From a virus (Duplodnaviria; Caudoviricetes): 64,000 bases of DNA. Below are positions 4,101-55,510 of the stretch, in pieces. Each line of letters starts with the position of its first letter. Positions within the stretch are counted from its first letter, which is position 1. Position numbers and translations under genes: made by a program. The notes beneath the pieces were generated by a model that was not told the origin of the DNA, made no database searches, and worked only from the letters and a program-made list of their open reading frames with translations. The DNA lies in the IMG/VR virus record IMGVR_UViG_3300006805_000023; one strand, given 5' to 3'.

Positions 4101-4411
4101 CCTGCTTCTTGATGGAGATGTCCAATCTGGAGGACACTGAGGACAAGGTTGACCATCCCGCCAACTTCACGGTTGAATGGAAGCCAGCGATACCGTTCGG
4201 GATGGTCCTAGGTGGTCCGGCATCTAAGGACATCGCGGACGCCGTGGCAGGTGCCTGTTACAACTGCGTGACCGACGTCGAGGGCATGGTCGGTCTCAGC
4301 CTCCCGGATTCTCACACCGAGTACATGGAGAAGCTGCTCACAGCCTTCCCCAACCCGCTCAAAGACACCTTCGAGCTTCCGCATGAGTCAGACATCCAGG
4401 TGTTTGACTAG
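1130..4411 (+). CDS. terL: Terminase large subunit containing an intein
   Basis: Walker A GGIGLGK(S), Walker B LVDE, nuclease motifs LHIDISSG and DIADAVAG; N-terminal PxIxEF..YLG pattern. Confidence 0.85.
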   Translation: MVQPPDKHHDLRTYLLDQGIEEAKYCSPEELELLDTMLHEMAEDGNSSTYDRMIEEDYSRPPPDIQEFVESNQYLGEVCRGTDEAPGLFPKWREVLYEMFDGSSKYKQLILAGGIGLGKSEIAGTPIPVDGKGTVPIEKVQVGDVVRGLSGLRKVTATHDEGELETLRIRTRLNHQIECGYERHRLLVMDCAALTEKWQFVNSFAGGEVVLLYPGNTFGPNELSDLDAFLLGLQIAEGVRQKKVRRCFYLSVHRDEAIFLTETFHFIHKVPSHARPNSNLLRVDRYSDLHREVSHQLCIDKVVPDFIKGATRRTICQFLRGCFSGDGTAFAQSVGYSTASRQLAVDIQELLLRLGMLTRFEERDSYNAASGRQGAGSNQLWLHGEVSKARFVAEIGFFYPEKQAAAILALNGDSRHNEHKYGFKIPRATVDVLISQQPPGTTGKKHPDYEKSPRRLLKRLRSQKCTTRLLREVLAAGGVLPKLLQQVAMGEVFFDQIESVERNRAHCYDLSVETVEDPSFISAGFMSHNSFIGSIVVLYKLCCALCLRHPLSYYGMSKVTSINFSYFSITQAQVKGGTFADTINMLTESPFFTENIKNPSSSRKYSSRSIGFSRNLRIEAGSRIYEALGRNTLVALVDEINFRLERDAAVAAADLFNAIEKRYKSRFRHTKDGMIILISSAKAENDFLSSHIRKSRHDPTVKICEFPWWEVVGPCRMKYSGQKFWVDIGDNISPAAILQPGQEKNLAASRLIHVPEEHREDFEGAGGIDRAIRDVAGVATGRVAKLFPNMMPLINCIRDGLHNPFKADVLPLSLTSLHQLADCLKTGGHGNQAGEQLVQFRHGKLQPLRHPTMPRFLHIDISSGAQDNCGIAMVHPFATSKVERTSMHNQMREMLVQPLIEIDFAIGLKRETPSDPLDFGKIRAFILWLRACGFDIRRITCDLRSMSQEMRNILTKMGFRAEYLSCDKTKAPYESLRIAVLEGRLHTGDLPCFLMEMSNLEDTEDKVDHPANFTVEWKPAIPFGMVLGGPASKDIADAVAGACYNCVTDVEGMVGLSLPDSHTEYMEKLLTAFPNPLKDTFELPHESDIQVFD
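1487..2716 (+). mobile_element. Intein (410 aa) with LAGLIDADG homing endonuclease, inserted in the terminase P-loop
   Basis: Begins S-E-I-A-G-T-P after GK, ends HN followed by +1 Ser; LAGLIDADG-like blocks FLLGLQIAEG and FLRGCFSGDG; STASRQLAVDIQELLLRLG block; YDLSV block F. Confidence 0.9.
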
Positions 4412-4415
4412 GAAG

Positions 4416-4444
4416 TTGACCATCAGCCCGTCCACCAGTAAAGT
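4416..4444 (+). promoter_or_regulatory. Sigma70-like promoter
   Basis: TTGACC-17-TAAAGT, 7 nt before ATG at 4452. Confidence 0.5.
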
Positions 4445-4451
4445 TCCTGAC

Positions 4452-4745
4452 ATGGAGCCAGACCTAGACCACATCGCTGCGATCACGGAGCCAATCCTAG
4501 TAAAGGTCGTGTCGGTCGTAGCCGAGCAGTACCGCCTTGTCCTAAACGACATCCCGAAGCCACGCGTCAGGGAACTACAGCGCATGATCAGTCGCGCCGT
4601 GGCTGATAAGGACCTACTAGGGGCGGTGAACAACTCCACAACTGCTGCCATGGGCCTGGACGAGAACCTGATCGAGATGAAGCTCTACGGCATTGTGACG
4701 ACCACAATGCGCCGGTTTGTGATGAGGTTCTACATCAGCCAGTGA
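4452..4745 (+). CDS. Hypothetical protein
   Basis: ORF filling the gap between terL and the exonuclease; ATG after promoter. Confidence 0.55.
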   Translation: MEPDLDHIAAITEPILVKVVSVVAEQYRLVLNDIPKPRVRELQRMISRAVADKDLLGAVNNSTTAAMGLDENLIEMKLYGIVTTTMRRFVMRFYISQ

Positions 4746-4760
4746 TTTCTTGGCTCGACT

Positions 4761-5531
4761 ATGGATATTCTGCTGCTCGACGGGGACAACGTCTTCAGGC
4801 GTTTTTGGCACGCCAACCCACACACTGCGACAAGTAGCTGGCGCGGCCTGCTCGAAGGCTACCAGCGGCGTCTGTCGGTGCCGAAGTGCCATGTTGTCGT
4901 GGTGTTCGACGGAGAGGATACCAGAGACCACGGCGTTGAGGGCTACAAGGCTCAGCGTAAGGAGCCAGACCCGCAGATGGTGCAGGACATGCTCGAAGCC
5001 GAGCAGATTGCCAGGCCGTTTGCGCGAGTGATCAAGCAGGACGGCACTGAGGGAGACCAGGTTATGGCTGGTGTTGTCAGCTGGGCTCGCAAGAATGGTC
5101 ACAAGGTCTGGCTGGTGTCGTCCGACAAGGACATGTTGCAGCTCGTCACCGATAAGGACCCACCTGTGGTGGTGATCAGGCCGTCGATCGGTGGCTATCA
5201 GCACTATGCGGAAGCCACTGTGAACCGCTTCTTTGGGGTTAGGCCGGACCAAATCGCCTCATTCCTCACTTTGGTTGGCGACTCATCAGACAACCTCAAG
5301 GGAGTCAAGGGGATTGGCAGCAAAGGGGCTGAGTACCTGTTGTCCAAGTTCCGCAATCTGGCAGACATCTACTCCAGGCTTGATCAGGTCGATATCAAGT
5401 ACCGGCTCCTTCTGGAGGCTGCTCAAGATCTAGTGATCCCCACCTACAGGCTGGTGAAGCTGTCCCACCCCGACATCCCAATCGACACCCGGATACCGGT
5501 CGCTAAGAACCGGCTGTTTCGTCACGGTTGA
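4761..5531 (+). CDS. 5'-3' exonuclease / T4 RNase H-like flap nuclease
   Basis: LLDGDN, VVFDG, YKAQR, EGDQ, SSDKDMLQL, GDSSDNLKGVKGIG motifs. Confidence 0.9.
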   Translation: MDILLLDGDNVFRRFWHANPHTATSSWRGLLEGYQRRLSVPKCHVVVVFDGEDTRDHGVEGYKAQRKEPDPQMVQDMLEAEQIARPFARVIKQDGTEGDQVMAGVVSWARKNGHKVWLVSSDKDMLQLVTDKDPPVVVIRPSIGGYQHYAEATVNRFFGVRPDQIASFLTLVGDSSDNLKGVKGIGSKGAEYLLSKFRNLADIYSRLDQVDIKYRLLLEAAQDLVIPTYRLVKLSHPDIPIDTRIPVAKNRLFRHG

Positions 5532-6679
5532 TAGAACGGGTAGTCACAGGCGCGCTTGATCTTACGCCGACGCTCCGGCTTGCTGACTTGTGCAGCTTCT
5601 TGGTCGTAGGTGGCCTTATCGCTCTGCACTGTTACGTCGCCCTTTTTCTTGTCAAGGTGCAACAGACGCTTGGGGTTCAGCACAATATCCTGCTCGCTCT
5701 CGATCAGGACGTCCTTTTTGGAGGAGATCTCGATGTTCTCCACCGAGAACAGCTTGAGCTTCTTGTTCTTGCGGTCGAGCAGCACCGTCTGGTCGCCGTC
5801 TTTAGTGAACAGGAACACGCGCTGCTGAGTCTCGTTCACCGACACCCCGTAACCGTCCGGGGTTTGCATAGACACCTTGCCGGTCGCGTCATCCAAGACG
5901 ATCCTCTTACCGCCTGGAGTCCAGGCCTCGATGGAACCGGCGTCCACCACTCGAAGGAGGGCTCCCCGTGGCGAGGCAATCTCACACACGTTCCCGATGT
6001 CGTCAACCGTGATTTGCCAGTTACCGAAGGTATAGAGCTGCACTGCCAAATAGTCAGGGTCGGAGCTGAACGTGATGCCGCGTGCCTTGGCGGTTCCCTT
6101 TTTGGTTTGCTCCCCAATGGCAGCCTCCAAGGAGATCACGCCGCGTTCTGTGTTGAGCCAGAAGAAGTTGTCGTGGATGTCAGCCAGCACCAGGCGCTCG
6201 CGGTCCTTGCGGTCGTCCAGCTCCAGGCGTTTCTGCAGGGGCGACACCAGCACGAAGTTGTCCGGGGCGTCCTCGTCGCCACCGTCTGAATCGGACTCGC
6301 TCTTCAGATCGCCGTCCGACCGCTTCTTACCAAACAGGCTGGTCGGCCAGAACCGGTGCTTGTTGGCTCCCTTGCCGTCGATCATCGTGTCGGTGCCGGG
6401 GGCAGCTCCGAAGTACACCGGATACTCGTGATCACCGTCTTGGAACTCCACCCAGACGTCGGTGCCAACGACAGGCACCCACACCATACCGTGCTTCTTG
6501 CCGCACTCCTTACGGGGTTGCGCCCACGGCAGCTTTTTGACCGGCGTATCCTGAGAGTGGATGCCATGGACTCTCACCCTCACACGGTACAAACGTTTAG
6601 GGTCCACCCTGGCTTCGACGCGTGCCCGGTAGAGGCCGTGATAGATGCCAGCCGAGTCTGGCTGTTCGAGAAACTTCAT
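5522..6679 (-). CDS. Baseplate hub / spike protein (gp5/VgrG-like OB fold plus beta-helix repeats)
   Basis: DPKRLYRVRVRV...LPWAQP...VPVVGTDVWVEFQDGD..YPVYFG; C-terminal short beta repeats. Confidence 0.8.
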   Translation of the reverse strand: MKFLEQPDSAGIYHGLYRARVEARVDPKRLYRVRVRVHGIHSQDTPVKKLPWAQPRKECGKKHGMVWVPVVGTDVWVEFQDGDHEYPVYFGAAPGTDTMIDGKGANKHRFWPTSLFGKKRSDGDLKSESDSDGGDEDAPDNFVLVSPLQKRLELDDRKDRERLVLADIHDNFFWLNTERGVISLEAAIGEQTKKGTAKARGITFSSDPDYLAVQLYTFGNWQITVDDIGNVCEIASPRGALLRVVDAGSIEAWTPGGKRIVLDDATGKVSMQTPDGYGVSVNETQQRVFLFTKDGDQTVLLDRKNKKLKLFSVENIEISSKKDVLIESEQDIVLNPKRLLHLDKKKGDVTVQSDKATYDQEAAQVSKPERRRKIKRACDYPFYQP

Positions 6680-6686
6680 CCGTGCG

Positions 6687-6693
6687 ATACTTA
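6687..6693 (-). promoter_or_regulatory. Putative late promoter motif TAAGTAT
   Basis: TAnnTAT 7 nt upstream of hub gene ATG; recurs before many virion genes. Confidence 0.6.
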
Positions 6694-6744
6694 GGGTTGG
6701 GAGGTGGGGTTGACGACGGCCAAAATCCGTGGAAGGTTACCTGC

Positions 6745-7125
6745 ATGCAAAAAACCCAACTCAAGCAATCTCCTGTTCTCAAGCCTGCGACTCACCTCTC
6801 ACACGTGCTGGCTTGGCGCGGCACTCCGGACCGTTTCAACTTCGGCTACGCTCAAGGTGCCACGATCACATGGTCCGCAGTTAAGGGCGTCTGGGAGTTC
6901 AACTCCTACCTCAACGGTGAGAAGGCTCGTGTCTCCTACATCGAAAAGGGCGACTTCGTGTGGGAGGCCAACACGCCTCCGAACTACTTCAAGGTGGTCA
7001 ATGCGTCCAACACCATTGGCCATATGAGAAGCCTCTACGCTGAGGACGGCAAGGTCTCGAAGTGGGATGGCGAGAAGCTGGTCCCGTCCACCCTTGCGGA
7101 ACTGCTCAAGGGTACTGAGCGTTAG
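6745..7125 (+). CDS. Hypothetical protein
   Basis: ATG at 6745, 6 nt after a weak TTGACG-17-AAGGTT promoter-like site. Confidence 0.55.
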   Translation: MQKTQLKQSPVLKPATHLSHVLAWRGTPDRFNFGYAQGATITWSAVKGVWEFNSYLNGEKARVSYIEKGDFVWEANTPPNYFKVVNASNTIGHMRSLYAEDGKVSKWDGEKLVPSTLAELLKGTER

Positions 7126-9629: not shown

Positions 9630-12600
9630 ATGAGTGATCCTTGGAACTGGTGCAACCCGCCGTCAGTTCCTTCCCTTGGGGAAGGGTGTCCACCTTGTTC
9701 AGGAACGGACGTCCTTCTAACCGCCAAGTATCAGCGTGACAACGCTAGCGGGTGGGGCTCAGGCCCCTCACGTTGCCTCTACCGGCTGATCTCAGCCCTC
9801 TGGCAACGCTACCACGTCCTAGGGCAAGCCAAGCCCGACTTCATCGAGAACGGGATCAGTTTCAAGGCTGGCTCCGAACTCTTCTTGAAGACCGTGGCAC
9901 TTAGAAACGGCTACGGTGAACAGCTGGCTCAGGTTCACCAGCGCATTTTGGAGGTTGGCCTGAGTTTCGCCAACCTCGATGGCACCCAGGTTACTCGACA
10001 GGACATGCTCGGATGGGGCGTCAAGGAGTCGCCCCCAAGCTACCCGGACGACTGCACGGGAGCCCTACGGGCGCTATGGAACCTGCGCTACCGCAAGGCA
10101 ACCGCCTTGCAGGTCTCTGGCGTCTTCAAATACTGCCCGTTTGATCGGAAGGGCATGGTCTCGCTCCAATGGAAGGTGCCGAGCTACATCAACTGCCGCA
10201 GGCTCGTGAATCCGCGACTGGTGTCGGCGTCGGCCACCCAAGGAACCATCACACTGTCCGGAGACGACAACTCGTTTATCCAGGTGCTGTACCGGCTCGA
10301 CCGGCCCGCCAACGCCTTTGTGCGTCAGATCAATGGAATCACACGCGTCACCCAGACCACGGGTCGCTACCTGCGCGCTTACGCCCCCAACCATTTCGAC
10401 GAGCGCCTGTATGTGGAGCGCTCTGAGCTGTCTTTCGCTACCGATGAATCAGGCAGTCTGGAGCAACAGCTTCTCACAGCCAGGCACTACATCGGGCCAC
10501 AGGCAGCCGTTACAGGGTGGAACGAGTCTCATTCCTCGGATGAGATCTCCTCCGAGGACCTCGTGCTGGCTGGGACCGACCCGGCCTTAGGCGTCCACAT
10601 CTACCCAGGGCTGAACGTCCTGATGGCTCCAGTCGATCAAGCCTATTCTGGGTTTGCGTGGCGGTTGGAGGGGAACGTAATCAAGAGGCTGGGAGAACCA
10701 GCTGACGTTACTCGGAACGTCAAGGAGGTGCCGTGGAACCGGTTGTTGTTCATGACTGACAACTCTGGGAACATGGACTTCTCGGATTTCACAAAGCCTG
10801 AATACAACGGCAAGCCCTGGAACGATCTGGACCTGATGGAGGCGGTGTTCTCCAGCTCGAACGAGCCCTTCATGACCATCGGAGGCCTCACTTACACGAA
10901 CCGAGGATCGGTGCCGTGGATGGTGCCTGGAGTCGATCAGGTGGACTTCGTGGTAGAGGGTGTGACGGTTGAGATCCCGTTTGATCAAGACGATGCCATA
11001 GGTGACGTCCCGGCGTTCGAAACTGGATTCTGGGCTCAACCGCGTCTGGTCATTATCCAGCGCTCCCCCACGGTGCGCGGATCGCTTCGAGCATGCTTTA
11101 CCGCGCCGGTTTACGAGGGCGACTCGCCGGACCCGTTGTCATGGACCGCCCGTGTTATCTGCAAGGACTCTCCGTTCAACCAGCAGGTGCAGCAAGTTGG
11201 CGGTGGAGTGCTGGTCAGCGACCTCACCTGTTTTAGCTTCGCCCTACCAGGGTTCCTGTCGGATGGCTCATTGCGGGCTGGCACCCTCAAGCTGGAGGTG
11301 CTGTTTTCGAACGGGCGCTCGTTGTCCGACTTTGTTCAGGTGTGCTCCCTCATTCCAGGCGGGGCGTTCGACCTGCCAAGCTCCAGCTCCAGCCATTCCT
11401 CGGAGTCATCACAACCGATCCCGCCGTGTCAAGAGGAGTTCGTGCGCCGGATGGTCGGTTACGAGTTTCTGAATTCAGACGCGATCGGACCTTTTGCCGA
11501 CGTTCCCCCGCCAGTCCGTGTCGTGAATGGCTCGATTCACGGGGAGGATGGCGGTGCCTTGGAGGCGTATGGGCTCGTCAACTGCCCCAGCTTCATTTTC
11601 AAGCCGCAGCGGTCTAACTGGGACTCGCGTTGGCAGCTCGCCATCTTTCACTCGTTCATCTTCCTTCGGCCAGACTTTGACGCTAGGACCTTGCCGATCG
11701 TAGGGGAGGTCAATGAGCCAGGGCCAGACCCAGGAAACCCATCCCTAGGATTCTCGTCCGTGCATTGGGACATCGAGTTTTCCAACGAGACAGGCACGTA
11801 TGGGTTCATTGACTGGGAAAAACGTCGCGGTTTCCCTTATCCAGGCGGGAGAGTGTTCTTCCAAGACTGGGAGGGTGCCAGTAACCTTTACACGAACTGG
11901 AGACTGGGAAGGACACCGGTTGTTTATCACACCACCTATTGGCCTCTTAACCTAGTGACTGAGGCTCAGATAGCTCCACTCGCCTTTTACGACGCCATGT
12001 GCGTTGACTTGGAGATCACCGATGCTGTGCCAGCCATGCCAGTGTACAACACTGATCCGTTGCTTGTCGGAGAACTGTACGCAGCCTGGAGAACCTACAA
12101 CGCAAATCCAGGGCCTTACACTGTGTACAGCCCAGTGATAGTTGACGGTCACACCCGGTCCAGGTATGACGGCCTCACTCAGGCCGGTAGAGCAGCGCGC
12201 AACTTTATCCGGGACGTGCTGGGCTTCGACATGGGCAACCTGGACTTCGGAGACGGCTTTCCAAATGGAGTCCTTGGAAACTGGTTTGCATCTGCTGTCA
12301 TCATGTGCTCTGGTAGGACGCATCCGCGCCTAGTGCAGGTTCTGGGTAACGAGGAGTTTTCGTCTGATGAACGCGAGTCATCGGGAGGCCCGGACGAGCG
12401 TTCATCAAGCTCATCGTCCAGTCAGAGCAACGCCAGTTCCTCCTCCAGCTCTCAGAGTGTCGAGTGTACCAACCAGCCGTTGGCCCCGAATCTGAGCATC
12501 TTCAACTGGATGCTCTATGAGATCACCGATCCAGTGAGAGCAAGCTGGGACCCGCGCTGGAGCCTGCATGTGGTGCACCGTCTCACGCTCAGCTCGACCG

Positions 12601-23079: not shown

Positions 23080-24396
23080 TTGAAGTGCTCATCCTGCAAC
23101 TCCCCGTCTAAGTCGCACAAGTCTGGCAAGTGCTCCGACTGTCGCCGTGATGGTTTCAAGGAAAGGTCACTGGCGATCTGGGACGACGCGGACGCCAAGG
23201 CTGCATGGGCAAAGTCGTGTACCTTCAAGCCGCGCTCAGCGCTGAACCAGCAGGTCGAGACTCTTCTAACCCGGCTCAATATTCACTACATCACCGAACA
23301 CGTCATCGGGCCATGGTCATTCGACGTGTTTATCCCGCACTGTGGCCTCCTGATCGAGTGCCAGGGCGAGTATTGGCACACGGTGTCCCGCAAGGAGCGC
23401 GCCGACCGGGCCAAGGCCACTTACGTGGAGTCGTACACCAAGCTGCGACTCCTGGAGGTGTGGGAGGTCGAGTTTTACAAGCAGGGGAGGCTGGAGTACC
23501 TGGTCAAGCGCGCCCTCGGACTCCTGGAAGTGCCTCCGCAGAGCAGCGTTGACTTCACGAAGCTCGACTGCCGGGTGGTTGATCGCCGCGACGCCAGCCA
23601 GCTTTACGGATCATCCCATTACCTTGGATCGTGCCGTGGCCGCTGGCACTTTGGTCTTTATCTGGGCGACCTTTTGATTGGCGCTTGTTCGTTCGGTCAG
23701 TTTCAGCGTAACGAGCAGACCCTCAAATACGAAGGAGCGTCGGAGCTTACCCGGTTCTGCATCGATTCGGCTTATCAAGTCAAGAACCTGGGGTCGTGGT
23801 TCCTATCACGCTCCCTCAAGCTCATCGGGGGTACCGTCGTAACCTATGCGGACCGCACCCAGGGGCATGACGGAGCGCTGTACAAAGCCACTAACTTCAC
23901 ATTCAGTCACGAGGTACCAAGCGATTACCACTACGTCGATCCGGGTGGTTGGGTGTTGCATAAAAAGACTGTCTGGAACCGGTCGGTGTCCATGAAGATG
24001 ACCGAGGCCGAGTATGCAGCTAAGCATGAGTTGTCGAAGAAATGGGGAGCTGCCAAGCTGTGCTTCATCTTCACGGGGACGCCTGCCCGGACGCACAAGA
24101 ACAAACCGCCAGTGCTGCAGCCGCGCAAGGTAGTCAGCGAGGTTGTCGGGAAGGTGGCTCAGCCCGTCCTTGATGTTGCCTTGATTCAGCAACTCAAGCT
24201 CGGCGGGACCTCTGCGGGAGCCCTGGCAACTCAGTTTAGCGTGTCCAGGGCTATGATCTTCCACACTGTGAAGCTTAGGCTCGTTGACTGTCACGAACAC
24301 GGTAAGCTCTGGTCCAAGAAGGACTCCTGCCCGAAATGCCGTGCTGTCCAGGGCTCTAAGGCTGGTGGTAAATGGGTCAAGGACGCGATGTCTTGA
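23080..24396 (+). CDS. Fusion of a DUF559/Vsr-like PD-(D/E)xK nuclease and a Mom-like GNAT domain
   Basis: WSFDVFIP..LIECQGEYWH; HYLG...ELTRFC...TYADRTQGHDGALYKATNF; N- and C-terminal Cys clusters. TTG start uncertain. Confidence 0.65.
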   Translation: MKCSSCNSPSKSHKSGKCSDCRRDGFKERSLAIWDDADAKAAWAKSCTFKPRSALNQQVETLLTRLNIHYITEHVIGPWSFDVFIPHCGLLIECQGEYWHTVSRKERADRAKATYVESYTKLRLLEVWEVEFYKQGRLEYLVKRALGLLEVPPQSSVDFTKLDCRVVDRRDASQLYGSSHYLGSCRGRWHFGLYLGDLLIGACSFGQFQRNEQTLKYEGASELTRFCIDSAYQVKNLGSWFLSRSLKLIGGTVVTYADRTQGHDGALYKATNFTFSHEVPSDYHYVDPGGWVLHKKTVWNRSVSMKMTEAEYAAKHELSKKWGAAKLCFIFTGTPARTHKNKPPVLQPRKVVSEVVGKVAQPVLDVALIQQLKLGGTSAGALATQFSVSRAMIFHTVKLRLVDCHEHGKLWSKKDSCPKCRAVQGSKAGGKWVKDAMS

Positions 24397-32908: not shown

Positions 32909-33334
32909 GTGAAGAACATCGTCGCCGCCGGAATCTGTTATTACTGCCCCTCAACCGGAAAGGTCTTGTTGGGGCAGCGCGGTGCGGACAGTGATGGGGG
33001 CTCCGGCGAGTGGGCAGCCTTCGGCGGTAAGCTCGAAGACGGCGAGACTCTGATACAATGCGCAGTCCGCGAGGTTCAGGAGGAGACCGGTTATAAGGAG
33101 TCCAAGCCGATGGCGCTCCGCCTCAACTACCGCTCGACCTGGACCCACGGCGACGTCCGGGTGGTGTTTTACTGCTTCATGCAAGCAGTGCCTGCCGAGT
33201 TTAAGCTCCCACAGCTCGACCAGACAGAGCACTCCAAAGCGGGCTGGTTCCCGGCGGACAAAATGCCAGCTGGGCTGCTCAAGCCGTTCGCCAGCAACCT
33301 CGACGTGGGAGCCCTCAAGCGCCTGAAGGTCTAG
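32909..33334 (+). CDS. Nudix hydrolase
   Basis: Canonical Nudix box GGKLEDGETLIQCAVREVQEETG. Confidence 0.9.
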   Translation: MKNIVAAGICYYCPSTGKVLLGQRGADSDGGSGEWAAFGGKLEDGETLIQCAVREVQEETGYKESKPMALRLNYRSTWTHGDVRVVFYCFMQAVPAEFKLPQLDQTEHSKAGWFPADKMPAGLLKPFASNLDVGALKRLKV

Positions 33335-33369: not shown

Positions 33370-34494
33370 ATGACCTCCCGTTATCAGGACCCCAAAATCG
33401 CCGAGATCTTCTCGGAAGACCGCAAGTATACCCTCTGGCTCCTCATCGAGGAGGCCTTGGTTAAAGCCCTCGCTCCGGAGGATGTCAGCAGACCGTTCTC
33501 GTCCTTCATCCAGGGGCTCCAGGGTGTTAATCTGACCAGCTTCATCAACGCCTGCAAACACGAGGAGCAAGGTACCAACCACGACGTCGGGGCGTTCCTG
33601 AACGTGCTGGAAGCCAGGGCTGACGGCTGCGTTTCTACCTTCCTGCATCGCGGCTTCACATCGTCCGATGTGGTTGACACTGCGACCAGTCTGCAGATTC
33701 ATGCTGCCCTCAGGCATATCGAGTGGCTCAAACACGACTTCAAGGAGGCCATCACGAACTCTGGAGACGCCGCGTGCGTCGGCTATACCCACGGGATGCC
33801 AGCCGAGGCGATGTGCCTCAGTGCGCGCTGGCAGCGCTGTTTCAACGAGCTGCGCGACCTACCACGGATCAAGCCGCATCTGACTGGACCACTCGGAGAC
33901 GCCAAGCATCTTGACATCGACACCAGGATCGAGCTGGCACGACTTCTCGGTTTCCATAACGATGGTGGAAAAGGCAGAGCGCCAGCCCAGCCCAACTACA
34001 TGCAGTGCTCGGAGCGGTCGGACTTTGCCAGACTGGCGTCGTCCATCGCGATCAACGGGAGCGTGCTTGCCAAGATGGCGCTCGACATGCGCCTGTTAGT
34101 GTTCAAGGGCGAAATGGGACGGGAAAAGGGGCACCACGAAATGGGCTCATCCGCGATGCCTCACAAAACCAACCCAGCTGATCTCGAAAAGGTTTGTGGT
34201 CTGGCCCGTGTGTTACGCGGCAACGCCATGGTCGCCATGGAGAACATTGAGCTCTGGTTGGAGCGCGACATCAGCCACAGCTCGACCGAGCGCATGTGGC
34301 TTCCCGACTCCTTCCACCTTTACTGCCACATGTTGACCATTATGACCAAGGCCGTCGTGAACTACAAGCCGACCCACGAAATGGGAGAGGCTCTAGTTGA
34401 TAATGAGAAGGACCTGCACACCGCAGCCAACGTGGTTCTGCTGCAAAAGCAGGGGATGGGACGCCGTGCCGCTTGGCTCAAAGTCAAAGGTTAA
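33370..34494 (+). CDS. purB: Adenylosuccinate lyase (compact, 374 aa)
   Basis: TNHDV, HRGFTSSDVVDT, THG, GSSAMPHKTNP signature, ERDISHSSTER. Confidence 0.88.
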   Translation: MTSRYQDPKIAEIFSEDRKYTLWLLIEEALVKALAPEDVSRPFSSFIQGLQGVNLTSFINACKHEEQGTNHDVGAFLNVLEARADGCVSTFLHRGFTSSDVVDTATSLQIHAALRHIEWLKHDFKEAITNSGDAACVGYTHGMPAEAMCLSARWQRCFNELRDLPRIKPHLTGPLGDAKHLDIDTRIELARLLGFHNDGGKGRAPAQPNYMQCSERSDFARLASSIAINGSVLAKMALDMRLLVFKGEMGREKGHHEMGSSAMPHKTNPADLEKVCGLARVLRGNAMVAMENIELWLERDISHSSTERMWLPDSFHLYCHMLTIMTKAVVNYKPTHEMGEALVDNEKDLHTAANVVLLQKQGMGRRAAWLKVKG

Positions 34495-38724: not shown

Positions 38725-40305
38725 ATGCTGCCCTCCACCTCTCCCGTCCCCTCCCCACACGATCTGGTTTACCTTGAGCTGATGCGCCGTATCCGAGCGC
38801 ACGGTGACTACCGGATGGAACGCACCGGCACTGGTGCCTATTCGTTGTTCGCCCAGCAACTGCGCTTCGACCTGACGGACGGTAGCTTCCCGCTGCTGAC
38901 TACTAAGAAGGTCCACCTGCGCTCGATCATCCACGAGCTGCTCTGGTTCCTGAAGGGCGACACCAACATCAAGTACCTCAACGACAACGGCGTGACGATC
39001 TGGGATGAATGGGCCAACCCGGACGGCGACCTAGGACCTTGTTATGGCTATCAATGGCGTCAATGGGGGGAGTGGTCCACTCAGCGTTTGGAAAAGAAGG
39101 CACCTGTCGTTAAACGTCTGGAGGATGAAATCCCGCCTTTCTGCGACTACGATGTTTCCCTCCCTGAAGCCCCGGTCATTACCGATGCTGGCAAGGACGA
39201 GCGCAACCGCGCTCTCGTAAAGGTCGTGTTTCCACGTTCCTGCTACTCGTACACGATTCGAAAGGACCACGCCGAGAGGGGAGTGCGCGACCCCTATGCA
39301 CCGTCGAAGTGCGGAGTTGGCTGTCTCGGCGAGGATGAGAGGACGCTTGGGATTCCGGAGACAGTCCTCAAAAACCTCATCGCTTGCTGGAACAAAATGA
39401 TGGAACGCTGCTACGATCCGAAGTGCAAGGAATACAGGTTCTATGGTGCCATCGGAGTCAAGGTGTGCCGTCGCTGGCTCTGCAGATCCGCCTTCCTGAG
39501 CGACGCCACCAAGCTCCCGTGGTTTGAGCAAAAGTCGAAGGATCTGGCTGGATACCAGCTAGACAAGGACCATCTGGGAGACAGCACTTATTACTCGCCG
39601 ACCACCTGCGCTTGGGTTCCTGAGTGGGTTAACTCGGCTTACGCTCATACGCAGCCCTTCGTGGCGACAGCTCCGGACGGCACAGAGTATTATCACATTT
39701 CGCCTAGCGTGTTTGGCTCGATGCATCAATTGTCGGGGCATTCGATCTGCCGTTGTTTGCGTGGTGAGAGGCCTCACCATTTCGGCTGGAAGTTCTGCCC
39801 TGTTGAGGATCGAGGTCTGCGCTTTAGCTCCCCCACTGATCAGATCAAGCAGCTGGTCGAGGGCATCGTCAAAAGCCCTTACGGGAGACGCCACATTGTG
39901 TCGGCCTGGAATGTGAAAGACTTGCCCACGATGAAGCTCCCACCCTGCCATTGCCTGTTCCAATGCTTCGTCTCCTCGAAGGGCCGCCTGAGCCTCCACC
40001 TTTACCAGCGCTCCGCTGACTACCTGCTGGGCGTCCCCTTTAACATCGCGAGCTATGCGTTGCTGCTGCTCATGCTGGCTCAGGCCACTGGGAACAAGCC
40101 AGGCGAGCTGGTCATCACGTTCGGCGACGTCCACCTCTACTCCAACCATCTGGAGCAGGCCGACCTCCAGCTGTCCCGCGCCCCGTTCGGAGCGCCTCGA
40201 ATGGAGATCGGTGACTCAAAGGACATCTTCGGTTTCAAGTATGAGGACTTCAAACTGCTGGACTACACCTCCCATGCTTCCATCAAGGCCGCCATCGCCG
40301 TTTAG
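38725..40305 (+). CDS. thyA: Thymidylate synthase with in-frame endonuclease insertion
   Basis: RTGTG, FPLLTTKKV, ELLWFLKG, IWDEW, RRHIVSAWN, LPPCH, YQRSAD..LGVPFNIASY, GDVHLYSNH. Confidence 0.93.
   Translation: MLPSTSPVPSPHDLVYLELMRRIRAHGDYRMERTGTGAYSLFAQQLRFDLTDGSFPLLTTKKVHLRSIIHELLWFLKGDTNIKYLNDNGVTIWDEWANPDGDLGPCYGYQWRQWGEWSTQRLEKKAPVVKRLEDEIPPFCDYDVSLPEAPVITDAGKDERNRALVKVVFPRSCYSYTIRKDHAERGVRDPYAPSKCGVGCLGEDERTLGIPETVLKNLIACWNKMMERCYDPKCKEYRFYGAIGVKVCRRWLCRSAFLSDATKLPWFEQKSKDLAGYQLDKDHLGDSTYYSPTTCAWVPEWVNSAYAHTQPFVATAPDGTEYYHISPSVFGSMHQLSGHSICRCLRGERPHHFGWKFCPVEDRGLRFSSPTDQIKQLVEGIVKSPYGRRHIVSAWNVKDLPTMKLPPCHCLFQCFVSSKGRLSLHLYQRSADYLLGVPFNIASYALLLLMLAQATGNKPGELVITFGDVHLYSNHLEQADLQLSRAPFGAPRMEIGDSKDIFGFKYEDFKLLDYTSHASIKAAIAV
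39067..39834 (+). mobile_element. HNH-type homing-endonuclease-like domain inserted in frame in ThyA
   Basis: WNKMMERCY...YGAIGVKVCRRW, LDKD, YSPTTCAWV..VN, C-terminal SICRCLRG..HFGWKF; about 256 aa between QWRQW and TDQI. Confidence 0.8.
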
Positions 40306-41773: not shown

Positions 41774-43066
41774 ATGGCACCCGCTACAACACCACTCCCA
41801 CAAAACGTCCTCCCACCACGCGTCCTCAGCCCCGGCAAGATCGCCGCAGTCCTGGATGCTGGCTACGGCTCCTCTTCCAAAGGCCTCGTGTCGGCCTGGA
41901 TCACCAAGAACGAGCGCCCTGACTTCCTGCTCACCGCCAACGGTCGCAATTCCTCGCACACCGTGGTGGATAACTCCCTGAAGGCCTCCCGCGAGGCCAT
42001 GACACCATGCCAGCTCAAGGGCGAGTTCGTCTTCAAGGTCCTGCCGGTCGGAGCCTTCTACAACAAGTGGAAGGGCTACAACCCGATCATCTACATTGGC
42101 CCCGGTGCCGCTTTTACGGTCGAGGACCTCGTCAAGGAAATGAAGGCCTGCGAGCTGGACAAAACGCAGGTCTGGGTCCACCCGCTGGCATCGGTCGTCA
42201 CGGAGGCCGACATCGGCTATGAAAACGGCACTTGGGACTTCGACGGCAACCCACGCCCGCAGATCGACCACGACTCCGGCACCACCAAGCACGGCACCAC
42301 GGGCTCCGGCGTCGGAGCAGCTCGTGCCAAGAAGTCTCTGCGCAAAGGCAAGCAGTGGTATGATGTCTCCGACCAGCCTACGATGGGGCAGAGCGGCCTG
42401 ATGTTCGCCGACACCTTCGAAGAGGCCGTCCTGAAGCGCCTGGCTCTCGGCAAGACCGGCCTGCTGGACGGTTCTCAGGGTTACCTGCTGAGCCTCTACG
42501 GGAAGTTCTTCCCACACTGCACTTCACGCCCCGTCACCCTGGCCTCATTCTTCGCCGACATCAACCTCCCGGTCAGTGTGATCGGCAACGTCTGCGCGGT
42601 GGCCCGCACCTTCCCAATCCGGATCGCCAGCGTGCGCTATTTCCTGGACAACCAGCCCGTCACCCTCGCCGAGAAGGTCGAAGCGGAGTCGAGGGGCCTG
42701 TTCGTCAATACTGTGGACTCCAACTCCGGTGGCTGGTATCAGGACCAACGCGAGTTGACTTGGGAGCAGGTCAGCGAACAGGCCGGACGCCACATCGAGC
42801 CTCAGCTCACCAGTCTGACCAAGCTGCCACGTCGGATCGCCACGTGGTCCAAGGCCGCGATCCGCGATTTCCTGCTGCACAACGCCCCGCCGTGCGGCTG
42901 CAAGACTTACTTGTTTGTGACCTTCACGAATTATCTGAAGGGCTCCGAGATGAAGCACTGGATGCACCAGAACATCCATGAACTGGACGACGCCGTAACC
43001 GAGGTGCTACTGTCCGACTCCCCGGAGACTGACAGCGTGCTGCCACTGGTGCGGGACTTTGAGTGA
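41774..43066 (+). CDS. purZ: Divergent PurZ-type (adenylosuccinate synthetase family) ligase
   Basis: DAGYGSSSKG (Ser at the PurA catalytic Asp position), NSSHT, KVLP, DGSQG..LSL..FFPHCTSR, ARTFPIR, SGGWYQDQRELTWEQ, TSLTKLPRR, TFTNY. Confidence 0.8.
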   Translation: MAPATTPLPQNVLPPRVLSPGKIAAVLDAGYGSSSKGLVSAWITKNERPDFLLTANGRNSSHTVVDNSLKASREAMTPCQLKGEFVFKVLPVGAFYNKWKGYNPIIYIGPGAAFTVEDLVKEMKACELDKTQVWVHPLASVVTEADIGYENGTWDFDGNPRPQIDHDSGTTKHGTTGSGVGAARAKKSLRKGKQWYDVSDQPTMGQSGLMFADTFEEAVLKRLALGKTGLLDGSQGYLLSLYGKFFPHCTSRPVTLASFFADINLPVSVIGNVCAVARTFPIRIASVRYFLDNQPVTLAEKVEAESRGLFVNTVDSNSGGWYQDQRELTWEQVSEQAGRHIEPQLTSLTKLPRRIATWSKAAIRDFLLHNAPPCGCKTYLFVTFTNYLKGSEMKHWMHQNIHELDDAVTEVLLSDSPETDSVLPLVRDFE

Positions 43067-50953: not shown

Positions 50954-51841
50954 ATGATGGACCGAAAGATTATCATCGGGGGCCTCCCCCACCACGGCAA
51001 GACCACCATAGCAGGCATCATCGCGAGCAGGTTCGGAGTGACCTTCGCGAACACCTCGGACACCATCTACGAGCAGGTCGCCAAGGACTACGGCAAGACC
51101 GTCGAGGAGGTCCACGCGATGGATAAGGAGAAGCTGCGCCCGGAGCTGATCTTCGTGGGCGACACTCTGTGCAAGGTGCACGGCCTGGCCTATCTGACCC
51201 TGAAGCAGCTCGAAAAGCACGACGTGGTGTGCGGCGTCCGCAAGCCGCAGGAGCTGGCTCTGGTCCGGGCCGCCTATCCCAACTGCCTGTTTCTATGGGT
51301 GATCCGCCCCGGCTATCCGACGATCAAGGATAGCACCCAGCTTTCCCACAAGGACGCTGATCTGGTGATCATGAACGCGGGATCGGTCTCCGACCTGGAG
51401 TCACAGGTAACGTCTGGACTGGTCAACAACAGCCTGGGTCTGAGCCACCCCGGCAACAGCTTGTGGAACCTGCTGCACTGGTTCGCCTTCCAGCGTGACT
51501 GGAACGCACTGGAGCGCACCAACTTCATGCAGGCCTTTGAAACCCTGCTGTTCATCACCGGCAAGTCCTGCCCGTGCGCCATCGAGTTCCAGGCGATCAA
51601 GAAGGTCCTTCCGCCTCCGGCTGGGCACGACGAGTTCTGGAACTGGACTTTGCTGGTGCACGACTGGGTCAACTATAAGCGCGGCGTGCCTACCCACTGG
51701 GACTGGACCCAGGGCCATCCAGGGTTCAAGATCCTCAAGGAGGCGTTCTCATCTGGAACCGCCGAAGGCATCCTGTCCGGCACCTCTGTCCCAACCCAAC
51801 CAGCAACCGACCTCACTTACTGCGCGCCATGCTCAAAATAA
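50954..51841 (+). CDS. dNMP kinase-like P-loop domain fused to an Erv1/ALR-like sulfhydryl oxidase domain
   Basis: GGLPHHGKTT, GVRKPQE, IMNAGSVSDL; then GNSLWNLLHWFA, CPCAIEF, W..LVHDWVNYKRG, terminal CAPC. Confidence 0.65.
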   Translation: MMDRKIIIGGLPHHGKTTIAGIIASRFGVTFANTSDTIYEQVAKDYGKTVEEVHAMDKEKLRPELIFVGDTLCKVHGLAYLTLKQLEKHDVVCGVRKPQELALVRAAYPNCLFLWVIRPGYPTIKDSTQLSHKDADLVIMNAGSVSDLESQVTSGLVNNSLGLSHPGNSLWNLLHWFAFQRDWNALERTNFMQAFETLLFITGKSCPCAIEFQAIKKVLPPPAGHDEFWNWTLLVHDWVNYKRGVPTHWDWTQGHPGFKILKEAFSSGTAEGILSGTSVPTQPATDLTYCAPCSK

Positions 51842-52602: not shown

Positions 52603-52897
52603 GCCGCTGGTCCTAGCCTGGACGGCACCGGCACCCCCGGATTCAACCTGCAGCTACGATCACTCCACGGCGGAGACGCTGTTTGGGCGCTTCTTGATAA
52701 CCTGGAAGGGCTGGAAGATTCTGCCCGAAAATCTGGCGTGGGGTGAGAGCCCAGGCGATCCTGGATACACGCTTGATGAGACCCCGTGGGGTGAGTTTGA
52801 GTGCAGGGGGTGGGACTCCCTAGAAGAAGTCCAGAGGTGGGCGGAGGACGAGCTGGAGCGTCGGATGCGGCTCCAGCTCGAAAAGTTCACCGCTTAG
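52556..52897 (+). CDS. Hypothetical protein
   Basis: Trp-rich ORF (YDH...ITWKGWK); start uncertain. Confidence 0.5.
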   Translation: MSATPQQAATLPTSAKPLVLAWTAPAPPDSTCSYDHSTAETLFGRFLITWKGWKILPENLAWGESPGDPGYTLDETPWGEFECRGWDSLEEVQRWAEDELERRMRLQLEKFTA

Positions 52898-53910
52898 AGG
52901 ATCGAGAGCCTGCTGGTTGACAGGTGTTCCATGACGTCCTTGCGATCCTGATCACACCACCGGCAGTCGGCCATGTTTTGAAACACCAGATCGTGCTCCT
53001 TGGCGACGTTGGTACCCAGAAGCACCGGGTTGTCAGAGTTGATGGTGACTGGGATCTGCAGGCGTGCTGCCACAACCAGGGCCGTGTTAAGCTCCTGCTT
53101 GGAGATGGTCTCAGTCCGCAGGCAGGCCGTCGGGCAGACCTCGAAAGTGACCTTGCGCAGCCGCTCCATCTCTGGCTCATTCAGCTTGATGTGAGCAAGC
53201 GATTTGAGCAGGTCCAGGCCGTGGCCGATCCGCGTAACGCCCCCGATGACGTCCAGGACGTTCAGGACGTTCATCCCAGTGTCACGTGCTTCACCGACGT
53301 GGTAGGTCAGGAACAGACCCTTTGAGTAGGCTTCGTGGAGGGGAGGCAGCATGTTCCTGGCAATCCAGTCCTTGTCGCGCTCCTGACCGGTCTCGGTCCC
53401 GCAGATGTCGAAGCCGTCGGCACCGGCCTCAATGGCAGCACGCACGGAGCCCCACAGGACCGAGACCGGTTCACGCCGGTCCGCGCACACGATCAAACGG
53501 GTCGAAATCCCGTGGCAGTCACCGGCGTCGCTGAGTCCCTGACGGGCCGCCCGGATCAGTGGCACCAGCATGTCTGGGCCACGCCGGTAGGGATCGAAGC
53601 GCATGTCGATGTGCTGCAGCTTACCGCCGGTCATCAGGTACTGGTGGACCACGGCCTCGAAGCATGAGCGCCTCACGGCGTCCGGACCCTGCTGAATGTC
53701 CTCCACCATGGCGTGAGGACCGCTCTTACGGCTCAGAAACTCATCATGAGTGGTCGTGTTGTGCTTGGTCTTGGTCATCAATTCCTCCAGTTCAATCGAG
53801 CTGAGCATGGCCAGCTTGCGCCCGGACCGGTAGGCCAGCTCCCAGAGGATGTGTGGTGGAGTTGAGCCACCGAGGTGGCAGTGAAAGTCACAGTATTTAG
53901 TTTGCTGCAT
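52894..53910 (-). CDS. Adenosine/AMP deaminase-family amidohydrolase
   Basis: DFHCHLGGS, MRFDP, GFDICG, TYHVGE, RIGHG, EVCPT, INSDNP. Confidence 0.85.
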   Translation of the reverse strand: MQQTKYCDFHCHLGGSTPPHILWELAYRSGRKLAMLSSIELEELMTKTKHNTTTHDEFLSRKSGPHAMVEDIQQGPDAVRRSCFEAVVHQYLMTGGKLQHIDMRFDPYRRGPDMLVPLIRAARQGLSDAGDCHGISTRLIVCADRREPVSVLWGSVRAAIEAGADGFDICGTETGQERDKDWIARNMLPPLHEAYSKGLFLTYHVGEARDTGMNVLNVLDVIGGVTRIGHGLDLLKSLAHIKLNEPEMERLRKVTFEVCPTACLRTETISKQELNTALVVAARLQIPVTINSDNPVLLGTNVAKEHDLVFQNMADCRWCDQDRKDVMEHLSTSRLSIL

Positions 53911-54877
53911 AGACGGTTCCAAGTTTGATGCGTTCCTCGATTTTTGTGCGGTTGACTTCGGCCAGTTTCTCCACTGTGATCCCAAGCTCGTTGGCGGTGG
54001 CTACCAGATAAAACAGCACGTCGCTAAGCTCGTCAAGCATCCGGTCTTTTGCGCGGTGGCCGAGATCACTGGCGCTGACCTGGGAGCTGTTGATACGGCG
54101 CATCACCTTTTGAACCACTCCGAGGACCTCGCCGCCTTCGCTGGCGAGCCCGGAGGTCGTGTAAACCAGTCCGGACGGGTACTGGGCTACTCGTTTGACC
54201 CAGCCCTGGTAGGCGTCGAGCTGAGCAATCATGGTGTCCTCCTCAAGGGTGAACTCCATCGTGCAGCCACGGTCCGGCGGTGGCGAGGTGCGCAGCCGCA
54301 TCCCGAAGGACACCGCCTCCTTGGCGAGGAAGGCCACCAAGTGCGTGCTGGTGAGGTCTGAGTCCTGCACAGTGAGCACTCCAGTTTCCAGCTCGACCGT
54401 GGCGGTCGGGAAGTTCTTCTGCAGCAAGATGGCGAGCTTGCCAGCTACCACCTGAAGGGACGGCCCGAATGACACCGTGGCCCCGTTCTCGAACAGAGAT
54501 GAGAGGTCTGGGCGCGTGTAGCCCTCACCCTTGATCCACTTACCAGTAGGGTCGGCCAGATGGCCGGTCTCCGGGTCGCCCTTGGTGCAGTTTGAGCGGT
54601 GCACCTCGTCCCAGGCCAGCTGCATCACCGGAGCGATGCCGAGCCGGTTGGCAAGCTGGAAGATGAACACCAGCGCGTCGATCAGACAGTCGGTCGTGTG
54701 GGTCAGGCGCTCCCGTTCCGTCGGGAGGTCCTTGGCCTCGTCCAGCTCGGTCTGCAGCTCCTCCTTGAAAAAGGCCTGGTAGGTTTGAACGACGCTGGCG
54801 TCGAAGACGGGTTTGCCTGCCAGCGGGATTCTCCACTTTTCGGCAAAGGCGCGGATGTCGGATAGTTGATTGACCAT
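53897..54877 (-). CDS. Tandem MazG-like (all-alpha NTP pyrophosphohydrolase) two-domain protein
   Basis: Domain 1 EELQTELDE..IDALV..DEVHRSN..K..GKWIK..Y..PDL; domain 2 GLASEGGEV..DELSDVLFY..N..KIEER; overlaps deaminase start by 14 nt. Confidence 0.8.
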   Translation of the reverse strand: MVNQLSDIRAFAEKWRIPLAGKPVFDASVVQTYQAFFKEELQTELDEAKDLPTERERLTHTTDCLIDALVFIFQLANRLGIAPVMQLAWDEVHRSNCTKGDPETGHLADPTGKWIKGEGYTRPDLSSLFENGATVSFGPSLQVVAGKLAILLQKNFPTATVELETGVLTVQDSDLTSTHLVAFLAKEAVSFGMRLRTSPPPDRGCTMEFTLEEDTMIAQLDAYQGWVKRVAQYPSGLVYTTSGLASEGGEVLGVVQKVMRRINSSQVSASDLGHRAKDRMLDELSDVLFYLVATANELGITVEKLAEVNRTKIEERIKLGTVYAAN

Positions 54878-54901
54878 CCACACCAGAAAGCACTATAAGC
54901 C

Positions 54902-55510
54902 TTAGTCGTCGCCAGGCGAGCTGGAGGAGTTGGACGAACTGGAGCTGGAGCTGTTCCTGGAGCTGGACGAACTGGAGTTCGAGGAGTGCGAGGACGGGCT
55001 GGAGGAACTGTCCGAACTACGGGAGCTGCTAGAGGAGTTGGAGGAGTTGGAGCTGCTGGAGGAGTTGGAGCTGCGGGACGACGGAGAACTCGAAGAGCTG
55101 TTGATGGAGCTGGTCGAGCTGCTGGATGAGCTGGAACTGCTGGACGAGTTCTGCGAGGAGCTGGAGGACTCCAGGAACCGGTAGTCAAGCACGTCTGCCT
55201 CGTGGGCGTCCTGAATGCGCTTGACGGCGTGCGTGAAGTCCTGCTCGGAGAAGATCTTGACGACCAGCTGGCCGTTGCCCTGGGTCGTGACCAGCTCGAA
55301 CTTCGTGAGAGAGGTGAGCTCAATCAGCTGCTCCGCCCTGGCACCCAGGGAGATGCTCTGAGACACGGTCCCGTTGGGGAGACGCACGTCCAGGTTGATG
55401 AGCGAGCTTGACTTGGAGGTCAGAGTCAGCTTGAAGTCAGCTGCGACGGTGGACAGGACGCGCAGCAGCACGTCTGGAGTTGCTTCGATCTGGAGGGTGG
55501 CGCGTTTCAT
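54902..55510 (-). CDS. Protein with about 85-residue Ser-rich C-terminal tail
   Basis: Globular N-terminal part then SSSSQNSSSS... to the end. Confidence 0.7.
   Translation of the reverse strand: MKRATLQIEATPDVLLRVLSTVAADFKLTLTSKSSSLINLDVRLPNGTVSQSISLGARAEQLIELTSLTKFELVTTQGNGQLVVKIFSEQDFTHAVKRIQDAHEADVLDYRFLESSSSSQNSSSSSSSSSSSTSSINSSSSSPSSRSSNSSSSSNSSNSSSSSRSSDSSSSPSSHSSNSSSSSSRNSSSSSSSNSSSSPGDD

Follow-up and report, generated by a model that had tools for sequence, protein, structure and literature searches.

Background

Phages that write 2-aminoadenine (Z) into their DNA must keep deoxyadenosine triphosphate (dATP) from their polymerase. The solutions described so far are three: the DatZ triphosphohydrolase, the MazZ/DUF550/DutZ pyrophosphatases, and DmtZ, a glycosidase that acts on deoxyadenosine monophosphate (dAMP). 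Is there a fourth? The question is raised by a 64,000-nucleotide stretch of the IMG/VR virus record IMGVR_UViG_3300006805_000023, which we call the window and which is 64 kb of a genome whose longest contig is 218 kb. The source is an uncultured, T4-like phage, with a gp23-type capsid protein, a prohead protease and baseplate J encoded in the window. The window also carries a PurZ-type synthetase gene, a PurB-type lyase gene and, on the minus strand, a MazG-type pyrophosphatase gene whose end overlaps the start of a gene for a deaminase of the adenosine deaminase (ADA) fold.

The answer we favour, and to which we give an even chance of being right, is that the last two genes are coupled in translation and together make up an irreversible, two-step sink for deoxyadenine nucleotides, leading from dATP to dAMP to deoxyinosine monophosphate (dIMP), and that this sink is the adenine-exclusion arm of the Z pathway. 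Two recent surveys of Z-pathway enzymes mention no deaminase, and when the full-text literature was searched for deaminases of dAMP or dATP, only RADAR and a review came up.

Results and discussion

A conserved overlap joins the two genes

The deaminase ATG (53910-53908) lies within the MazG codons ...GTC TAT GCA GCA AAC TAA. The first-pass annotation had reported an overlap of 14 nucleotides (nt), and it is exactly that. Four more loci carry this pair. One of them (L002) is a JGI contig identical to the window; the others are an NCBI metagenome-assembly contig (L011) and two Logan contigs (L001 and L003), with deaminases 51-93% identical to that of the window and MazG proteins 64-78% identical. 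All three keep the junction GTnTATGC...TAA with the stop 14 nt after the start, despite synonymous sites that are at or near saturation relative to the window. An overlap that survives this much divergence is not chance but a conserved feature. Both genes are under purifying selection in the closest pair, window and L011, with dN/dS values of 0.07 (deaminase) and 0.20 (MazG). Counting the window's own, four phage lineages keep both the gene pair and its overlap.

The upstream partner is a double pyrophosphatase

The MazG gene runs from the ATG at 54877 to a TAA at 53897-53899, and a GTG at 54883 is a possible alternative start. Its product had been described as a double MazG, and two pyrophosphatase domains are indeed found by PHROG 671 and PHROG 229, by Pfam and by ESM Atlas structures. 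The N-terminal domain matches PHROG 671 over residues 5-132 (8.8e-17), resembles PRA-PH/HisE-type models in the ESM Atlas (TM 0.81-0.83) and has a weak match to PDB 3NL9; its invariant acidic residues in a five-homologue alignment are E39, E40, E44, E56, D63, D67, D90 and E91. The C-terminal domain matches PF12643 (32.7 bits, cut-off 27), PF03819 (26.8 bits, cut-off 22) and, over residues 215-322, PHROG 229 (5.3e-19), with weak matches to YpjD, RS21-C6 and dCTPase chains. Its metal-binding pairs, ExxE (E247, E250) and ExxD (E283, D286), are invariant in all five known homologues. The middle region has no family match in Pfam or PHROG searches. The AlphaFold2 (AF2) model of the protein, built on a five-sequence alignment, has a pLDDT of 52 overall, and only the middle region reaches about 80.

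This two-domain architecture is rare, with only 5 clusters among 5.8 billion proteins. The protein gave no hit to PF04447 (MazZ/DUF550) at E values up to 1, and no sequence match to any solved MazZ chain in the PDB was detected.

The downstream partner is a deaminase that has lost Asp19

The deaminase scores 96.3 bits against PF00962 (A_deaminase), where the cut-off is 27. Against TIGR01430, the adenosine-deaminase equivalog, it scores 101.9 bits, under half of the 216.55 cut-off. Its AF2 model (111 sequences) has a pLDDT of 96.3, and Foldseek identifies the ADA barrel fold, with TM 0.76-0.80 and probability 1.00 to 1ADD, 6N91 and 3IAR. The metal and catalytic residues that had been noted as kept are all present and invariant: H10, H12, H204, E207, H230 and D293, in our alignments and in HMMER alignments to 6N91 and 1NDV. 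Their counterparts were checked in mouse ADA as HxH, His214, Glu217, His238 and Asp295.

Three altered sites had also been noted, and the alignments support each of them. Gly14 stands at the place of ADA Asp19, Asn294 at that of Asp296, and Ala262-Cys263 at that of the Ser-Asn in bacterial CPTSN; all three states are conserved within the phage clade. They do not have the same value, though. The CPTAC change was given a meaning it does not have, since mammalian ADA has CPWSS there and the site is not diagnostic. Nor is Asp296 to Asn diagnostic by itself, because it is common in Asp19-bearing relatives of the ADA clade, of the TDNR type. By this comparison only the loss of Asp19 is informative.

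Asp19 of mouse ADA makes hydrogen bonds to the 5'- and 3'-hydroxyls (PMC12669630). The authors of the DeaR paper state that Asp19 excludes phosphorylated substrates, and point out that AMP deaminases lack it (PMC13733733). Its loss is a published hallmark of nucleotide-acting enzymes of the ADA fold (PMC13733733, PMC12669630, PMC6451127), and we find it lost in every nucleotide-acting relative that we compared: AMP deaminase, MAPDA, Cad1 and DeaR. The substrate of the phage deaminase is likely to be a phosphorylated adenine nucleotide. So far the first-pass annotation, which proposed a phosphorylated substrate, seems sound on the strength of comparison, but whether there is one phosphate or three is not settled by sequence.

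One could instead take the protein for an ordinary salvage enzyme working on adenosine, deoxyadenosine or adenine, an auxiliary metabolic gene whose link to MazG is gene packing and nothing else. The Pfam family name and the automatic naming of its relatives as 'adenosine deaminase' fit this idea, as does the occurrence of Asn at the Asp296 place in relatives that keep Asp19. We think it very unlikely all the same. The equivalog score is far too low, the ribose-binding Asp19 is gone from the whole clade, an overlap conserved in four lineages is more than packing, and TaqCad1, which has the same changes, is almost without adenosine activity (PMC12669630).

The loss of Asp19 marks a branch much wider than these phages. 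Searching 1.84 billion representatives exhaustively, we obtained 664 relatives of the deaminase and built a tree of 138 of them. A branch with 99% support sets apart 66 proteins, of which 58 have Gly, 7 have Ser and 1 has Ala at the Asp19 place, whereas the other 72 are mostly canonical, with Asp or Glu. In an alignment of 51 clade members Gly is invariant there. The phage deaminases and a 41%-identical relative form a clade, also at 99%, within a Gly/Asn subclade. The Asp19-less clade is a deep, previously uncharacterised branch of the ADA family, and the database label 'adenosine deaminase' is probably wrong for it.

A second feature of the branch bears on the phosphate. Arg110 is invariant in the Asp19-less clade and is preceded by Lys or Arg, and the motif RF(N/D)PxxR(N) is retained in viral relatives. 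In AtMAPDA the 5'-phosphate is held by Asn17, the equivalent of Asp19, together with Thr98 and Lys100 of the beta2 loop (PMC6451127). The Arg109-Arg110 loop of the phage enzyme appears to be this same loop, and it would then be phosphate-binding.

Deaminase and PurZ-type genes recur together in large viral records

The window synthetase is of the PurZ type. Its closest PDB chains are phiVC8 PurZ (3.3e-25) and then S-2L PurZ, 7ODX (3.2e-20), and its P-loop has Ser at what we take to be the place of Asp13 in PurA. Thymidylate kinase and thymidylate synthase are encoded in the window as well. HD_3 (DatZ) and PF04447 (MazZ) had no match among the scanned open reading frames (ORFs) of the 64-kb window of the 218-kb genome.

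A search of IMG/VR with the deaminase clade gave eight loci; a scan with a single deaminase protein as the query had found no match. Three of the eight are large records: two that are 100% complete, with 167 kb and 150 kb, and one of 125 kb that is 83% complete. All three have a full-length homologue of the window's PurZ type (28-33% identity, E values of 1e-44 to 1e-52) and a MazG-like gene, and two of the three have the PurB type. HD_3 and PF04447 had no match above cut-off in these three related genomes. The complete 167-kb genome (L018, IMG/VR UViG_3300031918_000005), with PurZ-type, PurB-type and MazG genes, also has a guanylate-kinase gene at 10965-11525 (PF00625, 1.9e-19) that overlaps the 3' end of its Asp19-less deaminase gene. 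Guanylate kinase is the enzyme class that phosphorylates dZMP, the Z monophosphate, in the known pathway (bioRxiv 10.1101/2025.10.22.683976).

Searching with the synthetase gave ten loci, and every one of the five records of at least 125 kb had a PF00962 gene above cut-off. Four of these five genes are of the Asp19-less type. The fifth, in L046 (IMG/VR UViG_3300023202_000383, 256.5 kb; about 2410-2430, minus strand), is of another type that keeps NTDDP, and it has an in-frame TAG right after HxHL, at the Asp19 place, with LGGS next. Perhaps the codon at this specificity-determining position is recoded or suppressed; the gene could also be broken. The context of a Z genome, which had been read from the window alone, gains from this recurrence: PurZ-type and PurB-type genes are present in the window, and ADA-family genes recur in large phages that have the same PurZ type. 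At the Asp296 place, the PurZ-linked deaminases of the other large phages carry Gly instead of Asn.

An Asp19-less gene also stands beside purine genes outside the phages. On an archaeal-looking Logan contig (L007, SRR28211866), positions 2665-7083 hold a short PurA (338 amino acids, aa), PurB, a 217-aa ORF and an Asp19-less ADA-family gene in a row, with archaeal RNA polymerase genes nearby. These genes may serve a purine nucleotide cycle, and the phage set could have been drawn from such a cluster.

Which substrate, and in which order?

The sink that we propose would work as follows. One or both MazG domains would hydrolyse dATP to dAMP and pyrophosphate, as their family suggests, and would probably also convert dGTP to dGMP, the substrate of PurZ. 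The ADA-fold enzyme, with its Zn/His/Glu/Asp machinery intact, would then deaminate dAMP to dIMP, which is the step that its active site and its context point to. The change from Asp19 to Gly would open room for a 5'-phosphate, and the Lys/Arg109-Arg110 pair would be positioned to bind it. Deaminating dAMP would stop host adenylate kinase from rebuilding dATP, including from the dAMP of degraded host DNA.

The order of the two steps can also be reversed. A dATP-specific deaminase, acting as Cad1 and RdrB act on ATP or dATP, would make dITP, and MazG would then take dITP to dIMP and so prevent its incorporation. This is the main rival to our proposal, with the same net conversion of dATP to dIMP and the same purpose. 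The phage clade has both of the changes that TaqCad1 requires for ATP deamination, and it lies in the Gly/Asn subclade of the tree. TaqCad1, with Gly264 and Asn549, deaminates ATP and hardly adenosine, and the N549D change abolishes its ATP activity (PMC12669630); a second study found it strict for ATP (PMC12993439). The first-pass annotation gave the order dATP to dAMP to dIMP as an example; to take it as settled would be an over-reading, because TaqCad1, with this very Gly/Asn pair, deaminates only ATP. Enzymes of the MazG family also commonly clear non-canonical dNTPs.

We nevertheless regard the reversed order as unlikely, if a serious rival. A deaminase that accepted ATP would be self-damaging, and Cad1 and RADAR do arrest growth; acting on the monophosphate spares ATP. 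The product dITP is a polymerase substrate, so that a mutagen would be made. The Asn seen in Cad1 is missing from the PurZ-linked relatives in other phages. When a T4-like phage breaks down host DNA, the adenine reaches it mainly as dAMP. For these reasons we prefer dAMP over dATP as the substrate. The phage clade is not specifically related to Cad1 in any case: even with a profile made from the clade only, canonical ADA chains reach 184 bits, against 86-107 for Cad1 chains, and the order is the same for P0020. A PADLOC hit to CARF_ADA (model positions 261-553) might suggest kinship with Cad1, but we set it aside because this is the sole ADA model in that library.

A bolder idea goes further. 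The Asp19-less branch could be a large, unrecognised family of (deoxy)adenine-nucleotide deaminases of large phages and archaea that starts the conversion of A to Z in PurZ myoviruses. Host-derived dAMP would become dIMP, then dGMP by host IMP dehydrogenase and GMP synthase working on the deoxy forms, and finally dZMP by PurZ and PurB, so that degraded host adenine would end up as 2-aminoadenine. On the archaeal contig, the position of a clade member next to PurA and PurB hints that deaminase, synthetase and lyase were recruited together. We consider this extension clearly unlikely.

Parallels in known systems

The closest precedent for a coupled sink is DutZ-DmtZ of the PurZ0 phages Wayne and Ghobes. 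It takes dATP and dGTP to dAMP and dGMP and then destroys dAMP irreversibly, which is the same two-step logic, and its two enzymes are fused in one phage and adjacent in another, a coupling as tight as that of the window pair (PMC12884076). The idea of a coupled step from dATP to dAMP to destruction, put forward for the window before this comparison, turns out to have a published example in PurZ phages, one that works at the dAMP level and tells against the reversed order (PMC12884076). The enzymes themselves are different. DutZ has a trimeric dUTPase fold and DmtZ is a dAMP-specific N-glycosidase of the NDT family, whereas the window encodes all-alpha MazG domains and an ADA-fold deaminase; DutZ-DmtZ removes the base, whereas the window pair would deaminate to dIMP. 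The precedent makes the two-step logic credible and the window pair a case of convergence.

DatZ and MazZ of S-2L and phiVC8 have the same proposed purpose, the removal of dATP and the supply of dGMP (PMC8065100, PMC8342488). MazZ likewise belongs to the MazG superfamily, but the window protein differs in having two pyrophosphatase domains and a middle domain. An older parallel is found in T4 itself. Its dCTPase (gp56) and dCMP-modifying enzymes exclude a canonical base by taking the dNTP to the dNMP and converting the dNMP further. That system differs in handling a pyrimidine, not a purine, and in using unrelated enzymes.

Cad1, also called CAAD, has the ADA fold and the same two changes, Asp19 to Gly and Asp296 to Asn, both needed there for nucleotide deamination (PMC11645235, PMC12669630, PMC12993439). 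The window deaminase differs in being a stand-alone protein of 338 aa, with no CARF domain and no control by cyclic oligoadenylate (cOA), and in being a phage gene and not a defence system. TaqCAAD (Cad1), tested on both, used ATP and not dATP (PMC11645235, PMC12669630, PMC12993439).

The N6-methyl-AMP deaminase MAPDA/ADAL (PMC6451127; PDB 6IJN, 8QCH) is an ADA-fold enzyme that acts on a nucleoside 5'-monophosphate, and its phosphate sites are the two places that differ in the phage enzyme. This likeness allows another reading, in which the phage enzyme sanitises N6-modified adenine nucleotides in the manner of MAPDA/ADAL, for example N6-methyl-dAMP from methylated host DNA. The changed Asp19 place of this enzyme (PMC6451127), the ADAL chains from the PDB among the deaminase matches and a Mom-family protein, with its link to adenine N6 modification, in the window all fit. 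However, MAPDA retains Asp296, and its residue at the Asp19 place is Asn rather than Gly; the enzyme also requires the N6-methyl group and does eukaryotic housekeeping. The phage deaminase has no specific sequence affinity to ADAL, and sanitising would leave both the coupling to a dNTP pyrophosphatase and the association with PurZ unexplained. We find this reading highly improbable.

The only ADA-fold enzyme in the literature we found with a biochemically shown dAMP deaminase activity is KomA of the Kongming system, which is of the ADA family and prefers dAMP, giving dIMP (bioRxiv 10.1101/2024.12.20.629578). We liken it to the phage enzyme by the activity proposed for the latter, not by sequence. 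KomA belongs to host defence, its gene shares an operon with KomB (HAM1-like) and KomC (SIR2), and its product feeds an immune signal; no KomB- or KomC-type domains were found in the ORFs flanking the window deaminase, whose neighbours are phage genes.

Either order of the steps yields a deoxyinosine nucleotide, and the pair might accordingly supply deoxyinosine for phage DNA or manipulate host defences that read nucleotides, such as Kongming-type dITP signalling. Campylobacter Fletcherviruses do have deoxyinosine genomes (PMC13091555), and in Kongming dAMP is the precursor and dITP the signal (bioRxiv 10.1101/2024.12.20.629578). The supply idea was part of the first-pass annotation, and we could find no support for it. 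Among cultured phages no relative of the deaminase was detectable except in two Enterococcus records, and none was found in any Campylobacter phage. The MazG step gives a monophosphate, while incorporation needs a triphosphate. As for defence, making dIMP would feed Kongming signalling and not starve it, and the association with PurZ points to Z. Supply or defence is the least probable of the readings considered here.

Objections to the proposed sink

Several observations weigh against the sink, or at least against its strict form. The first concern the enzyme. The proposed phosphate pocket is drawn from sequence comparison, and the Asp19-less clade has no assayed member and no solved structure. 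The exact Gly/Asn pair is that of the ATP-only enzyme Cad1, which makes a triphosphate substrate possible. Members of the clade also occur on the short phage-like contigs L005, L006, L012 and L013, where PurZ could not be checked, and the role of the deaminase may be more general.

The others concern the pathway. In the complete 167.8-kb genome of the cultured Flavobacterium phage MaF61, the divergent PurZ type and a lyase are present but an ADA-family gene is missing; the divergent-PurZ pathway therefore does not require the deaminase. None of 75 cultured PurZ-carrying phages has this deaminase, which argues against a strict link. The absence of DatZ covers only 64 kb of the 218-kb genome, and two of the related genomes have weak, sub-threshold HD matches. 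For the divergent PurZ branch we infer the presence of Z in the DNA from the genes.

MaF61 is at the same time a ready experimental handle on this branch. It comes from Finnish lake water, and its description does not discuss the PurZ and lyase genes or DNA modification (PMC13269007). The two genes lie at 118051-119394 and 129735-131090 of PQ858689.1, with the divergent PurZ type annotated as 'putative adenosuccinate synthetase'.

Other features of the window and of related contigs

Table 1. Features of the window that bear on the MazG-deaminase pair and the Z pathway
Feature	Position	Strand	Basis
ADA-fold (amidohydrolase) deaminase, 338 aa (P0001), Asp19-less clade member	52894..53910	-	PF00962, AF2/Foldseek, tree
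Gly14 codon, ADA Asp19 place (ribose 5'-OH/3'-OH ligand)	53869..53871	-	alignments
Arg109-Arg110 codons, basic pair in beta2 loop, proposed phosphate ligands	53581..53586	-	R110 invariant in clade alignments
Asn294 codon, ADA Asp296 place	53029..53031	-	alignments; same change as Asn549 of TaqCad1 (PMC12669630)
MazG stop/deaminase start overlap, 14 nt, translational coupling signature	53897..53910	-	sequence; same geometry in L011, L001, L003
Two-domain MazG-type NTP pyrophosphohydrolase, 326 aa (P0178)	53897..54877	-	ORF, translation, Pfam, PHROG
N-terminal PRA-PH/HisE-like all-alpha pyrophosphohydrolase domain, aa 1-135	54473..54877	-	PHROG 671, Atlas structures
MazG middle region, aa 136-213, predicted small alpha/beta domain	54239..54472	-	AF2 beta-alpha-beta pattern
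C-terminal MazG-like domain, aa 214-326	53897..54238	-	Pfam MazG/MazG-like, PHROG 229
PurZ-type synthetase, divergent, 430 aa, P-loop GSSSKG	41774..43066	+	PF00709 1.2e-11
PurB-type lyase (Lyase_1)	33370..34494	+	PF00206 1.8e-17
NUDIX hydrolase, immediately upstream of PurB-type lyase	32909..33334	+	PF00293 3.3e-20
P-loop kinase-like protein, 295 aa, adjoining the pair	50954..51841	+	sub-cut-off Pfam matches

The kinase-like gene that adjoins the pair stays beside it in L001, L002 and L011 (72-100% identity by tblastn in related loci). Its matches are weak, to P-loop and dNMP kinases in the N-terminal part and to Erv1/Alr in the C-terminal part. On the other side, 18 nt upstream of the MazG gene, lies a gene (54902-55510, minus strand) whose protein closes with a tail of about 80 residues that is nearly all Ser, with Asn, Pro and Arg; the gene may be co-transcribed with the pair.

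Some further genes of the window deserve a record. Mom is an adenine N6-modifying enzyme family of phage Mu, and a 438-aa member (PF25680, 1.1e-16) is encoded at 23080-24396 on the plus strand, in a phage that is probably replacing adenine. The thymidylate synthase ORF (38725-40305, plus strand, 526 aa) has its ThyA match split in two by an I-HmuI/NUMOD-like endonuclease segment, which looks like an inserted in-frame element of the homing-endonuclease type. At 1130-4411, also on the plus strand, a 1093-aa ORF has a LAGLIDADG domain and weak matches to intein splicing domains.

On the contig of the 41%-identical deaminase relative (P0015, L005), positions 2257-2823 hold a gene like those of the Acb1/2H phosphoesterases, and the contig is probably phage. 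Two candidates for a MazG partner elsewhere, a 327-aa ORF near the L006 deaminase and the ORF upstream of the L005 deaminase, proved not to be MazG relatives.

Conclusions

What the window adds, if our proposal holds, is not a new function. Adenine exclusion in PurZ phages is known, and we think the chances are balanced that the comparisons presented here have found a new enzyme pair that carries it out in new hosts of the pathway, the large myoviruses. There would be a practical side as well: a deaminase specific for dAMP or dATP, together with its pyrophosphatase, would be of use in producing Z-substituted DNA in vivo. If the proposal is true, deamination is a fourth and chemically different solution to the problem of keeping adenine out of a Z genome. 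The enzyme would also be the first deaminase of purine nucleotides to be placed in the metabolism by which a phage makes its own DNA precursors, and PurZ-type purine rewriting would reach beyond the small sipho- and podoviruses, to T4-like phages of 125-260 kb.

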